A DNA stretch of 64,000 nucleotides, taken from positions 6,000-69,999 of the forward strand of contig JBDLTH010000080.1 in the NCBI GenBank assembly GCA_039799165.1, read 5' to 3'. How positions within the stretch are numbered: the stretch's first letter is position 1; each line of letters begins with the position of its first letter. Positions 43,233-47,002 of this stretch are shown piece after piece. A program made the translations under genes and the position numbers. The notes below the pieces were generated by a model that saw only the letters and a program-made list of their open reading frames with translations, had not been told where the DNA came from and ran no database searches. This stretch comes from Bacteroidota bacterium. GTDB lineage: Bacteria; Bacteroidota; Bacteroidia; Bacteroidales; Dysgonomonadaceae.

Positions 43233-43892
43233 TTATTTCTTTGTTAAGGGTATTTTGAGAATTGCATTTATCAGCAATCCAGCATGCTGGTTAGGTATCC
43301 ATTCTTGATAATTTGGGGGTTGGTGCTTCACGATATCAGGTCTAAAGTTAAGAGTTGAATAGCCAACAGAACCTACAATAGTCCATTTCGGTGTTTTGTA
43401 TTCTACACCTGCCCCTATATTGTAGGTAAGGCTTGTTTCGGCGAAACTCTTTTTGTCATGTCCTTTATACGTAAAGCGACCCGTCATTACTCCCACTGCA
43501 ATTTCGTTTTCGAGAAACAAAGATAGGCTTTCGTCTACATGAAAATGAAATTTAGGTACAACACCAACCTGTGGGTGAAACAGGCTGTACTTTAGGCTTG
43601 CTGTACTTGGGTTTTTAGGTGGAATTGGTATGCCATTTTTATCTGCGGTTGCATTTGTTTCATCACTGAAAGTATAAAGCCCATATCGGGTTCTCAACTC
43701 TAGACTAAAGAAGTGATTGCGATGTGGCATATATTCTAAGCCCATAATGAATCCTCCTCCCCGAACGTCTTGGTCAAGCCCTGTTCCATTGTAATAGATG
43801 CCTGGCATGAGTGAGAGTTTTGATTGTGCTTGCACCAGTTGTGAAACGAGTGCAAAAATAAAGATAAAACTTATAGATAGTATAACTTTCAT
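43233..43892 (-). CDS. Putative outer-membrane beta-barrel protein
   Basis: SPI signal peptide (AQ cleavage), alternating beta-strand pattern, YNIGAGVEY; 4 nt downstream of peptide 3 stop. Confidence 0.6.
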   Translation of the reverse strand: MKVILSISFIFIFALVSQLVQAQSKLSLMPGIYYNGTGLDQDVRGGGFIMGLEYMPHRNHFFSLELRTRYGLYTFSDETNATADKNGIPIPPKNPSTASLKYSLFHPQVGVVPKFHFHVDESLSLFLENEIAVGVMTGRFTYKGHDKKSFAETSLTYNIGAGVEYKTPKWTIVGSVGYSTLNFRPDIVKHQPPNYQEWIPNQHAGLLINAILKIPLTKK

Positions 43893-43896
43893 ATAC

Positions 43897-44082
43897 TTAG
43901 CTCATGATACTGCATAAGGTGAGATTAGCTATAATGAGTAGTGTGCCTGCCAATAATATTTTTAGTGCTTTAGACTGATATTGTTCTTTTTTTTCCATTA
44001 TAATACATACAATCAGCAGAACACTTCCGCCTATAATTAATGCTATACCGCAGAGTAGCAATCCCCAAATTAGTGTAATCAT
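43897..44082 (-). CDS. Small two-helix membrane peptide 3 (61 aa, ends TLCSIMS)
   Basis: Paralog of 44382-44597: ALKILLAGTLL...TLC. Confidence 0.75.
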   Translation of the reverse strand: MITLIWGLLLCGIALIIGGSVLLIVCIIMEKKEQYQSKALKILLAGTLLIIANLTLCSIMS

Positions 44083-44154
44083 GAGCGTATTTCTTGTTTT
44101 TCAGTAAATGTTTATTTTAAAAGAAAGCTTCTTAATAAATGAAGGATAGCCCAT

Positions 44155-44343
44155 TTATAAAGCAAGCAAATAAGCGAATACACAAATAAATATACCGCAT
44201 CCGATTAGCTTTATAGAATTGAGCGTATGCTTTCGTTTATCTTCTTTTATGAGAGAAACGATCAATATCATTATTCCTACCATGCTAGTCAGTACTCCTA
44301 TTACGAATATAATCAAGAGGACTAAGAATAAAATATATTCCAT
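44155..44343 (-). CDS. Small two-helix membrane peptide 2 (62 aa)
   Basis: Same helix-charged loop-helix layout (KEDKRK..LNSIKLI); ATG 44343 preferred over TTG 44349. Confidence 0.7.
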   Translation of the reverse strand: MEYILFLVLLIIFVIGVLTSMVGIMILIVSLIKEDKRKHTLNSIKLIGCGIFICVFAYLLAL

Positions 44344-44381
44344 TATCAATATTGTCTTTTGCGTATTAAAACGGAGTTTAC

Positions 44382-44597
44382 TTAGTGCATGGGACCTAAG
44401 CTAAAGGTCATGGTGCAAAGCGTAAAACCACCTATGCCTAGCAATGTACCCAGTAGTATGACTTTTAGTGCGTTTATGGCACGTTTTTTTTTATCATCTA
44501 CAAATACTACACTAATTAGCATGATGATGCCAACAACAAGAAGTAGTATGGCTATACCTAGTATAAAGAACGATAAAATGTTTAAAGACTCTTTCAT
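44382..44597 (-). CDS. Small two-helix membrane peptide 1 (71 aa, ends TLCTMTFSLGPMH)
   Basis: 30 nt downstream of rSAM stop; DDKKKR loop, ALKVILLGTLL...TLC. Confidence 0.75.
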   Translation of the reverse strand: MKESLNILSFFILGIAILLLVVGIIMLISVVFVDDKKKRAINALKVILLGTLLGIGGFTLCTMTFSLGPMH

Positions 44598-44627: not shown

Positions 44628-45989
44628 TTATATATCAGATTGGTTTCGATACAACAGATTCATGGTTTCGAAAGGGATAATTCGCCCATCGTCATGTACA
44701 ATATGCACGCACGATTTTTTGATGGCTCGCACATCAAAGTTGTGTGCATCCATAAATTGCATAATAATTACCCGAAACAGGTTGTCGTATTCCAGCCCAG
44801 GTGCATACACTTCGGGTAGGCAACATAGCAGTTGGGTTACGTTTTCCGAAGCCTTGTCTACCGATATACCTGTACTGAAAAGCTTTATCATCTGGTCTTG
44901 CAGATCGGCATCTTGCTCGTATACAATGGTGTTTTTAGAAGCCGTATTCAACAGGGCTTTCGGGTCTATGTATCGGGTTAGGGGTATTACCTGTCCGTTC
45001 AGTTTTAGGGCATAGCCCATAGCCAGCGCATCGGGGTTGCAAGGTACGGGTACAATGTCGTTGGCTTCGAACAGCTTGCTCTGAGCGAGTATGTTGTTAC
45101 GCACCTCGGTAAGGGTTAGCCGATGATTGACCGAGTGGGGGTGGTTGCGTCCAGCTATTTGTATTGGCTGAAAGGTTACACCACGCACGCATCGTTGTTT
45201 TACGGCAAAGTCAAGTATACTGCCTATTTCATCGTCATTTAGCCCCTGTTGCAAGGTAACTACAAGCGTGGTGCTTAGGTTGAGTTCGTTGAGGGTTTCC
45301 AACGCTTTGTATTTAAGCGAAAGCAAATCGGCTCCTCGCAATTCTTTAATTACTTCGGGGCGAAACGAATCGAATTGCAGGTACACCTCAAAGTCGGGCA
45401 TGTAGCTTGCCAGTCGAGTTGCAAATGCACGGTCTTGTGCAATGCGAATACCGTTGGTGTTTAGCATCAAATGCTTGATGGGTTTTTTCTTGGCAATGTC
45501 TAATATTTCGAAAAAATGGGGGTGTATAGTGGGTTCGCCACCACTTATTTGCACAACATCGGGTTCGCCCTCGCTAGCTACTATAATGTCTAGCATGCGT
45601 TCTATTTCTGCTACACTTTTGTGTTTGCCTTGAGCCGACGATGCGGCATAGCAGGTGGGGCAATTGAGGTTGCACTGATCGGTAATTTCTACAATGCAAA
45701 GGCAACTGTGTTGCTCATGATCGGTACACAGACCACAATCATAGGGGCATCCTTTTTCTACGGGCATCGCAAACTTGAGTGGCATATCCGAAGCCTTGTT
45801 GTAGTTGCGTATATTTTTGTAATAGTCTACATCCGTAGCCAGCAATGTTTTACTAAACCCATGTTGTGGGCAAGCTTTGGTCATAAACACGTTGTTGCCC
45901 TCAATCACTATCTTGGCATCGATACGTTGCAGGCACTCGGCACAAAGGCTCGTTGTGTAGTCGTAATATACATAATCTCTTACAGGCAT
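44628..45989 (-). CDS. Radical SAM enzyme, Tes/GDGT-MAS (MJ0619)-like family
   Basis: N-terminal TTSLCAEC...CPQHG, auxiliary GCPYDCGLC..HEQHSC, core CNLNCPTC, SGGEPT, LNTNG, YLQFD, RGVTFQP, C-terminal SCVH...DGRIIPF. Confidence 0.85.
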   Translation of the reverse strand: MPVRDYVYYDYTTSLCAECLQRIDAKIVIEGNNVFMTKACPQHGFSKTLLATDVDYYKNIRNYNKASDMPLKFAMPVEKGCPYDCGLCTDHEQHSCLCIVEITDQCNLNCPTCYAASSAQGKHKSVAEIERMLDIIVASEGEPDVVQISGGEPTIHPHFFEILDIAKKKPIKHLMLNTNGIRIAQDRAFATRLASYMPDFEVYLQFDSFRPEVIKELRGADLLSLKYKALETLNELNLSTTLVVTLQQGLNDDEIGSILDFAVKQRCVRGVTFQPIQIAGRNHPHSVNHRLTLTEVRNNILAQSKLFEANDIVPVPCNPDALAMGYALKLNGQVIPLTRYIDPKALLNTASKNTIVYEQDADLQDQMIKLFSTGISVDKASENVTQLLCCLPEVYAPGLEYDNLFRVIIMQFMDAHNFDVRAIKKSCVHIVHDDGRIIPFETMNLLYRNQSDI

Positions 45990-46003: not shown

Positions 46004-46789
46004 TTAGGTGGTTTGTTTACTCGTTGATGGATGGCTTGCAAGCAGCCGTTTGGGCTGCACGATATAGGGTGCATAATAAAATATGGTGAGCAGGCTAGCA
46101 AGTTGAATACTGCCCAACCCAAACGCATAGCGCCATCCGGGCTTGATGAAGTCGAGGGCAAAGCGAAATACAAAATAGGCGATCATAAACAGCTTGAATA
46201 GTCCTCCCGATTGCAGGGTATATGTTTTTTGTACCTGCTTGAGAATAATCCAAATGCCGATGAGGTAAACAATCTCGTACAAGGCTACGGGGTGGCGCAT
46301 GATGTTGTCGCCCAAGTTCATTGCCCACGGCAATGACGAGGGCAGTCCATACGTTTCTTCGTACACACCTGCACTAAAACAGCCAATGCGTCCGATAATT
46401 ATTCCTAGCAAAAGTGGGTATACATATATGTCGCCAGTGCTTTGCTTTTCGCCTACTATTTTTTTGAATAGTTCTACGCCTATCAATCCACCTATTAGCC
46501 CGCCAGCCAATGTTTTGTTGAACCAGAAGTACAGTAGCTTGTTTGACGATGCCATCCATTGCGGTATGTTTTCGGCAGCACCCAACAAGTGCGATCCTAC
46601 AATAGCCCCACTGGTTGCACCTATTAGTGCTACTAGCCGATTGATGTCTTCGACCGAGTCGCCTTGTTTTTTGCGTAACATGAGGTAATACCTAAAAGCT
46701 ATACATGTAGCCATCAGCTCTAGTAAGCTATGCCACAAGATAGTTGTGCCAGCTATTTGTATGCCCATCGGAAAGTTAAAATCGATCAT
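46004..46789 (-). CDS. Prolipoprotein diacylglyceryl transferase-like protein (divergent Lgt)
   Basis: GGLIGG, GRIGCF, YG.P..LPW, HPVALYE, FRF.LDF motifs; multi-TM; ATG 46789 preferred. Confidence 0.85.
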   Translation of the reverse strand: MIDFNFPMGIQIAGTTILWHSLLELMATCIAFRYYLMLRKKQGDSVEDINRLVALIGATSGAIVGSHLLGAAENIPQWMASSNKLLYFWFNKTLAGGLIGGLIGVELFKKIVGEKQSTGDIYVYPLLLGIIIGRIGCFSAGVYEETYGLPSSLPWAMNLGDNIMRHPVALYEIVYLIGIWIILKQVQKTYTLQSGGLFKLFMIAYFVFRFALDFIKPGWRYAFGLGSIQLASLLTIFYYAPYIVQPKRLLASHPSTSKQTT

Positions 46790-47002
46790 TCTTATCGATA
46801 TAAGGTTGATTTTTGTTGTTTCTTTATCTAAAACAGTGTGCAATAGTACGTTTTTTAACTGAAAGTAGCAAGTAAAGGATAATATTGTGAGATTAAATTA
46901 TTAAAAGATCATCAATCATAAATATGATAGGAATGTATAATTTACCTTATTTTTATTACTTGATTTAAAAGCTTACTTTTGTGCTAAATTTTAAAAAAGA
47001 AG

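Follow-up and report, generated by a model that had tools for sequence, protein, structure and literature searches.

Cys-tailed membrane micro-proteins encoded with an Lgt paralog and a Tes-like radical SAM enzyme: a candidate protein–lipid modification module in Bacteroidota

What might three small hydrophobic proteins, encoded in tandem and in two cases ending shortly after a Cys residue, be doing beside a paralog of the lipid-transferring enzyme Lgt and an enzyme of the radical S-adenosylmethionine (SAM) type (rSAM)? The question is raised by a stretch of 64,000 nucleotides, here called the window, from a Bacteroidota bacterium of the family Dysgonomonadaceae (GenBank assembly GCA_039799165.1, contig JBDLTH010000080.1, positions 6,000 to 69,999 of the forward strand). 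The present study indicates that the three peptides are real, and probably translated, two-helix membrane micro-proteins of an unannotated family. This family is under purifying selection and is the obligate third part of a module whose other parts are the Lgt-like protein and the rSAM. Specifically, the reading that we favor, and to which we give a probability of about 0.45, is that the peptides are uncleaved acceptor substrates, which would be S-lipidated at their Cys by the Lgt paralog and whose lipid tails would then be remodeled by the rSAM.

The genes concerned lie on the minus strand in the order Lgt-like gene, rSAM, peptides 1, 2, and 3, a gene resembling those for outer membrane protein (OMP) β-barrels, and MutS2. 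Going along the row, the gaps are 14 nt between the Lgt-like gene and rSAM, 30 nt between rSAM and peptide 1, ~32 nt between peptides 1 and 2, 72 nt between peptides 2 and 3, and 4 nt between peptide 3 and the OMP-like gene. The parts of the module are as follows, TM standing for transmembrane.

46004..46789, minus strand: Lgt paralog, 261 aa from the ATG at 46789 (M19), with a match to Pfam LGT
44628..45989, minus strand: Tes/GDGT-MAS-like rSAM, 453 aa, soluble, with a match to PDB 7TOL
44382..44597, minus strand: peptide 1, 71 aa, two-TM hairpin with the basic loop DDKKKR, GGFTLC61-T, and a 10-aa tail
44415..44417, minus strand: codon (TGC) of Cys61 of peptide 1, the family-invariant Cys, from column conservation
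44155..44349, minus strand: peptide 2, 64 aa, a divergent paralog
43897..44082, minus strand: peptide 3, 61 aa, two-TM hairpin with the loop EKKEQ, ANLTLC57-S, and the 4-aa tail SIMS
43912..43914, minus strand: codon (TGC) of Cys57 of peptide 3, the family-invariant Cys, read from the sequence

The three open reading frames (ORFs) had been picked out in an earlier, sequence-only reading of the window, and the coordinates and the sequence strings quoted there proved exact. In each peptide two hydrophobic helices flank a charged loop. Peptide 1 (...VDDKKKRAINALKVILLGTLLGIGGFTLCTMTFSLGPMH) and peptide 3 (...MEKKEQYQSKALKILLAGTLLIIANLTLCSIMS) have ALK(V/I)(I/L)L(L/A)GTLL-x5-TLC in common, while peptide 2 (...KEDKRKHTLNSIKLIGCGIFICVFAYLLAL), as that reading had also seen, carries its Cys earlier and is without the terminal TLC. 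That the three are paralogs was borne out for two of the three pairs: peptide 1 resembles both peptide 3 (BLASTP E = 3e-9) and peptide 2 (E = 4e-6) above chance, but pairwise comparison of peptides 2 and 3 gives no alignment. The AlphaFold2 prediction made from the family alignment is a helical hairpin (H2–32 and H36–67; pLDDT 77.7) in which Cys61 lies within helix 2, close to the helix end. No Pfam or NCBIfam model matches the peptides beyond sub-threshold hydrophobic noise, and a single-sequence search with peptide 1 returned peptide 1 alone; the family is detectable only through synteny combined with a profile.

A scan of species-representative genomes gave 271 relatives, from which 80 loci were kept, mostly belonging to Chitinophagaceae, Flavobacteriaceae, Weeksellaceae-type bacteria (Chryseobacterium, Epilithonimonas), Saprospiraceae, and Cyclobacteriaceae. 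One to four small hairpin ORFs with the Cys motif stand beside the enzyme pair in 80 of 82 loci, usually beginning 40–60 nt 3′ of rSAM and, in two loci, a few kb downstream, and the Lgt-like gene is directly upstream of rSAM in most loci that have upstream sequence. When the larger neighboring ORFs were clustered, no conserved gene was found beyond rSAM and the Lgt-like gene, and there was no LspA, Lnt, peptidase, or transporter/exporter among them. The association also holds in the reverse direction: a peptide from marine metagenomes, recovered by profile search, comes immediately after genes with LGT and Zn_ribbon_HMPTM/Radical_SAM domains. A hidden Markov model (HMM) built from 59 peptides of other genomes, with the window peptides left out, was run against the complete 2.8-Mb genome as 25,002 open frames; it placed peptide 1 first (E = 2e-6) and peptide 3 second (E = 2e-4), and did not detect peptide 2 among these frames. 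For nine Flavobacterium orthologs pN/pS is 0.13, with 841 differences at third codon positions versus 127 at second positions. Mean identity across loci is 75% for the rSAM, 52% for the Lgt-like protein, and 34% for the peptides, and the pairwise identities of the two enzymes are correlated (Mantel r = 0.81, 0/999 permutations). In an even sample of the phylum the rSAM is carried by ~7% of genomes (29/401 genomes, 21/179 genera). Sampling of 9 further species in the genus and 15 further genera in the family did not turn it up, and one genome of the same order has the rSAM with the Lgt-like gene upstream and a single 63-aa hairpin ORF downstream.

The layout of the module varies between groups. 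Loci of the Chryseobacterium/Epilithonimonas type (L046, L048–L052, L055, L056) have the peptide or peptides between the Lgt-like gene and rSAM, with the motif ISG[MYF][VIM]CG. Those of the Chitinophagaceae type (L022, L030–L047, L053–L058) encode longer, three-helix small proteins of 80–105 aa whose N-terminus is basic and whose first loop is acidic, and these forms keep the predicted orientation of the last helix and a G-[IV]-[ST]-C motif. At one locus (L104, Lacinutrix neustonica CP113088, 1875–4207) the Lgt-like gene has one frame change and rSAM two, and the 68-aa peptide ORF is intact; either the cassette is decaying or the assembly is error-prone.

In the alignment of 37 family sequences the Cys is the sole near-invariant column. 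The sequence-only reading had staked itself on the conservation of this residue in orthologous clusters, and it is present in 94 of the 99 unique peptides from the 80 loci, the exceptions being extra copies at multi-copy loci. It is set in the motif [LI][ILV][GS]x[G/S/T][ILV]-C-[GS], which recurs in 32/32 further database members that were fetched, and is followed by a nearly uncharged and mostly aliphatic tail of 1–18 residues (median 6). The N-terminal part of the peptides is conserved in architecture only (mean column identity 26%). The central loop is rich in K and R, and the last basic residue precedes the Cys by a median of 17 residues in the family and by 16 in peptides 1 and 3; the median spacing is 15 in N-terminal lipobox candidates of the same genome, a set collected with a crude regular expression. 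A basic region followed by an uncharged hydrophobic stretch that ends at a Cys, as in a lipoprotein signal, is thus a feature of the family, from which peptide 2 deviates. Two features of a standard lipobox are not shared, because the motif is not N-terminal, but ends helix 2 of a hairpin of 61–71 aa, and only 11 of 93 family peptides pass the core rule of the PROSITE PS51257 type. By the positive-inside rule the basic loop is predicted to be cytoplasmic; the last helix would then run from inside to outside and the Cys would lie in the periplasmic leaflet, at the end of its helix, which in two- and three-helix forms alike would reproduce the geometry of the lipobox Cys of a lipoprotein signal. 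Catalysis by Lgt itself is sited just under the membrane–periplasm interface (PMC4728403). In peptide 2, the ORF of which starts at TTG with an ATG two codons further in, the last Cys is only 9 residues past the last basic residue. Copies that lack the Cys or deviate from the pattern are also found at other loci with several copies (L023, L028, and L065), and peptide 2 accordingly has the look of a degenerate duplicate in which the proper Cys register has been lost.

The Lgt paralog matches Pfam LGT at E = 1e-21, with 77.8 bits against a cut-off of 24.9 bits, and scores 42.4 bits with the NCBIfam Lgt model (TIGR00544), which is under the cut-off of 118.9. Its AlphaFold2 model (pLDDT 72.8, pTM 0.72) has a single significant match in the PDB, E. 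coli Lgt (5AZB; E = 6.8e-8, TM 0.61), and is consistent with the seven-TM Lgt fold. Across 75 family members the residues that are kept are GGL, G142, R143, G145, E202, Y235, R239, E/D243, and K246. Among these, G142, R143, G145, E202, Y235, R239, and GGL are each found in at least 74 of 75 members, save L106 (65 L, 10 F), and the conserved R143 and R239 are the phosphate-binding residues. A housekeeping Lgt (222 bits) and LspA are encoded elsewhere in the genome. The longest ORF of the Lgt-like gene opens at a TTG at 46843, and residues 1–25 of the model have pLDDT <50; since homologs align only from the ATG at 46789 (M19), this is probably the real start. In all rSAM-linked Lgt paralogs an invariant Cys (C155 in the window) stands in place of the signature N146, where it might form a disulfide, bind a metal, or act as a catalytic thiol.

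The rSAM matches GDGT-MAS/Tes (PDB 7TOL) over its full length (E = 3.6e-64, residues 12–450) and contains the Pfam domains Zn_ribbon_HMPTM and Radical_SAM, with a weak Fer4_12. Its invariant or near-invariant sites (79–80 of 80 sequences) are C16xxC19x20C40xxH43, C81/C85/C88 with H91/H94, and C106x3C110x2C113, and the same pattern is found in GDGT-MAS, where it comprises a rubredoxin-type CX2CX20CX2H, an N-terminal CX3CX2C plus His cluster, and the radical SAM CX3CX2C (PMC9433317). In the C-terminal part C317, C389, C390, and C427 are invariant. The sequence of the rSAM has no TM-like segment. Membership of the TrsS (NF045646) and Tes (NF045702) families was considered and rejected because the scores, 326 and 278, are under the curated cut-offs of 490 and 450, and NCBIfam models of the SPASM family reach ~30–55 bits against cut-offs of 250–850. 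Databases label related rSAMs "radical SAM protein" or misname them pterin dimethyltransferase. Lipid-tail chemistry is the only chemistry known for the Tes family.

A sister branch of the module throws further light on the small proteins. More than 6,700 protein clusters, from Prevotellaceae, several phyla of the candidate phyla radiation (CPR), Chlorobi, and others, contain rSAM homologs ~40% identical to that of the window, and in the six loci examined (L099, L100, and L107–L110, from Prevotellaceae, CPR bacteria including Falkowbacteria, Chlorobaculum, and other metagenome-assembled genomes) the gene order is in every case rSAM, a methyltransferase of the ICMT/PEMT family, DUF4395, LGT, and a small ORF of 76–123 aa. 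With their two helices and basic loop, the small proteins finish in VFGGC, LGGGC, LFGAC, AAGSC, IVGSC, or IVGGC plus 4–11 residues, so that the canonical lipobox G-[GAS]-C is present and 7 of 7 pass the −1 rule. The Lgt-like proteins of this branch score higher, at 144 bits, and keep Y26, share with the window's branch the loss of H103 and the change of N146 to Cys, and have the signature GRxGCFFxGCCYG, with three Cys residues in the loop. For the sister rSAM the best NCBIfam model is TrsS (360 versus a cut-off of 490), and for the ICMT-family enzyme it is protein-S-isoprenylcysteine O-methyltransferase (71.6 versus 160), in a family that also includes thiol, phosphate, and lipid methyltransferases. 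Intermediate rSAM homologs, 57–61% identical, likewise come with a Cys-tailed small protein. As neither an ICMT nor a DUF4395 gene is present anywhere in the window's genome, that genome holds a reduced, three-component form. An old and robust link therefore joins rSAM, Lgt-like protein, and Cys-tailed membrane protein. The proposal of the sequence-only reading that the Cys mimics that of a lipoprotein signal gains support from these sister proteins because they end in a canonical lipobox, and it agrees with the near-invariance of the Cys, the K/R–Cys spacing of 17 versus 15, and the adjacent Lgt paralog. In one sister rSAM (L099, G071:C25:40013-41371) an in-frame TGA was considered as a selenocysteine codon and rejected, since this TGA ends the frame within an ATGA shared with the gene that follows.

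How might the three components work together? That the peptides are substrates is suggested by their fast evolution, their variable copy number, conservation that is confined to a recognition-like motif, and the canonical lipobox of their sister counterparts. In the scheme that we favor, peptides 1 and 3 would receive on their Cys thiol a glycerolipid moiety transferred by the Lgt paralog, probably the diacylglyceryl group of a phospholipid. Cleavage by LspA is unlikely, because the residue at −1 is bulky and no peptidase is conserved in the cassette, and the lipidated hairpin would then remain in the membrane. The cytoplasmic Tes-like rSAM would remodel the tail termini of the attached lipid, or of a neighboring one, by radical C–C coupling, and would thereby give a macrocyclic or membrane-spanning lipid that is attached to a micro-protein.

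Several observations weigh against this scheme. Of 93 peptides, 82 have I, L, V, T, F, or M at −1 (peptides 1 and 3 read TLC), a bulky choice that is unlike known Lgt substrates. In the Lgt paralog Y26 is His in 73/75 members, H103 is M, V, L, or A, and N146 is Cys in 74/75. Mutants of E. coli Lgt in H103, Y26, and R143 are inactive (PMC4728403); with H103 and Y26 absent, the paralog cannot work exactly like Lgt, and it may catalyze some other reaction. The CC..PFC of the C-terminal cluster of GDGT-MAS aligns with SC..PFE in the window's rSAM, so that the ligands are partly replaced. The two enzymes cannot share a target atom, for the rSAM is located in the cytoplasm and the predicted position of the Cys is periplasmic. 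Alignment of the small proteins of the two branches with hhalign pairs the right segments, but the match (E = 0.034) is not significant. Finally, membrane-spanning lipids are not known from Bacteroidota. We give a substantial chance, though one below even odds, to the full claim of a new protein–lipid modification in which an Lgt paralog would S-lipidate an uncleaved C-terminal, "reverse" lipobox and the rSAM would join the tails to give a protein-anchored macrocyclic or membrane-spanning lipid.

The alternative that survives best, although we consider it rather doubtful, is that the micro-proteins are not substrates at all but membrane subunits or adaptors of an Lgt-like/rSAM complex, which would recruit the rSAM or gate the access of lipids, with the Cys as a partner in redox chemistry, a disulfide, or metal binding, for instance together with Cys155, which is invariant in the cavity of the Lgt-like protein. 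Such a role would suit an rSAM that has no membrane segment yet needs membrane lipids, an Lgt paralog that lacks residues required for canonical transfer and has an invariant Cys at the N146 position (with the GRxGCFFxGCCYG signature in the sister branch), and components that coevolve (r = 0.81). However, stoichiometric subunits rarely occur as one to four fast-diverging tandem copies, and more than one conserved residue would be expected of them. The spacing and the sister motif fit a lipobox specifically, and the Cys is predicted to lie across the membrane from the rSAM.

A second alternative, which we think unlikely, is processing akin to that of CaaX proteins, whereby the Cys would be lipidated and the short tail removed, with subsequent carboxyl methylation by the ICMT-family enzyme in the sister branch. 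The Cys does always precede a short, mostly aliphatic tail (1–18 aa, median 6), and an ICMT/PEMT-family methyltransferase is found in 6 of 6 sister operons. Yet the tail has no fixed length, no CaaX-type protease is conserved in the cassette, the ICMT match is under its cut-off in a family of mixed function, and ICMT and DUF4395 are both absent from the window's genome.

It is less probable again that the Tes-like rSAM itself links the Cys sulfur to a carbon of a lipid tail as a thioether, the Lgt-like protein only presenting the lipid or the peptide. The precedent is the intermediate C–S bond that GDGT-MAS forms to a sulfur of its Fe–S cluster (PMC9433317), and in such a scheme the peptide Cys would replace this intermediate-carrying cluster sulfur; the altered C-terminal cluster ligands and the absence of H103 and Y26 from the Lgt paralog are both in keeping with it. 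Topology is not, since ~16–17 residues separate the Cys, at the distal end of its helix, from the cytoplasmic side, where the rSAM is located, and the four invariant C-terminal Cys residues suggest that the third cluster is retained.

The sequence-only reading had seen in the peptides a conserved leader and a variable core, as in precursors of RiPPs (peptides made by the ribosome and then modified post-translationally), with Lgt-type lipidation and cleavage by LspA before the Cys releasing very short diacylglyceryl-Cys lipopeptides. Tandem paralogous small ORFs beside an rSAM gene, an invariant Cys followed by varying tails, and an LspA in the genome all favor this idea, but we hold it to be the least probable of the schemes that give the peptides a function. 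The leader claim finds no support, given an N-terminal identity of 26%, an rSAM that is of the lipid-modifying, Tes type with no SPASM element, and a cassette in which no peptidase, exporter, or RiPP recognition element (RRE) is conserved. The cleavage claim fares no better, with the −1 residue bulky in 82/93 peptides and the lipobox core rule passed by 11/93, and the short, uncharged tails show no obvious sign of bioactivity. The last possibility, that the ORFs are chance open frames or encode functionless hydrophobic peptides, accords with their shortness, low GC content (30–36%), hydrophobicity, and want of a Pfam or NCBIfam match but is effectively refuted by the comparative data, which show that their position is conserved, their Cys is invariant, selection on them is purifying, and the profile recognizes them specifically.

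The gene that follows peptide 3 is as follows.

43233..43892, minus strand: OMP β-barrel-like gene, 219 aa, with a match to Pfam OMP_b-brl at E = 4e-5, under the cut-off

This gene is probably cotranscribed with peptide 3, but it was rejected as a member of the module because its adjacency to the cassette is not kept at other loci. Neither the intergenic gaps nor the stretch upstream of the Lgt-like gene has a promoter box of the Bacteroidetes type (TAnnTTTG) on the minus strand, and scans of the region for sigma-70 promoters and terminators gave only chance-level counts. A terminator-like hairpin at 44015–44031 (minus strand) lies within the coding sequence of peptide 3; the region has about as many such sites as chance would predict, and this one is probably due to chance.

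The module is widespread and undescribed, and it builds on known Lgt-type lipidation and Tes-type lipid chemistry. No description of it or of the peptides was found in the full-text literature, and a 2026 review of lipid-modifying rSAM enzymes makes no mention of Lgt or lipoproteins. Database copies of the peptides are labeled "hypothetical protein" or, spuriously, LysE/ArgO, and bacterial Tes homologs have been discussed only as candidate enzymes for brGDGTs (glycerol dialkyl glycerol tetraethers of the branched type) or membrane-spanning lipids (PMC8941075). If the favored reading is true, then Lgt-type chemistry would not be limited to N-terminal signal peptides, and bacteria would have a second, dedicated route of protein lipidation, acting on micro-proteins that annotation pipelines mostly miss or call hypothetical. 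It would also give many bacterial Tes homologs a concrete and testable context, through a protein-linked substrate that can be purified and weighed, and the sister operon in genome-reduced CPR bacteria would suggest a role in basic membrane architecture.

Four known systems, and one family model, bear comparison with the module. Like the clusters for RiPPs that are modified by rSAMs, such as those for sactipeptides and ranthipeptides, it has tandem small paralogous ORFs with a conserved Cys beside an rSAM gene, but unlike them it has no SPASM or RRE element, leader peptidase, or exporter, its peptides are membrane hairpins, and its rSAM is of a lipid-modifying clade. As in the CaaX processing of eukaryotes and archaea, the Cys stands within a few residues of the C-terminus, has aliphatic residues after it, and is accompanied in the sister operons by an ICMT-family gene, whereas prenyltransferase and CaaX protease are lacking, the lipid enzyme is Lgt-like, the tail is variable, and the window's genome has no ICMT. 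TrsS (NF045646) is the best NCBIfam model for both the window rSAM (326) and the sister rSAM (360), both of them <490, and the window rSAM has no in-frame selenocysteine codon. With Tes/GDGT-MAS (MJ0619; 7TOL/7TOM; NF045702) the window rSAM shares full-length homology, identical patterns for the rubredoxin-type, N-terminal, and radical SAM clusters, and a soluble form that would be expected to act on lipid tails. It differs in being bacterial, in scoring below the cut-off, and in the rearranged ligands of its C-terminal cluster, and archaeal Tes, unlike the window rSAM, is not encoded with an Lgt paralog and Cys-tailed micro-proteins. Finally, with Lgt and the N-terminal lipobox (E. coli Lgt, 5AZB/5AZC, PF01790) the module has in common the Lgt fold, R143, R239, GGL, Y235, and E202, and a target that consists of a basic region, ~16–17 hydrophobic residues, and small residues ahead of a Cys at the outer-leaflet end; the sister lipobox is of textbook form. 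In contrast to the cleavable N-terminal signal, however, the motif here ends the last helix of a polytopic micro-protein of 55–120 aa and has a bulky residue at −1, and the enzyme is a second, dedicated paralog (Y26 to H, H103 to hydrophobic, and N146 to C) that is coupled to an rSAM.

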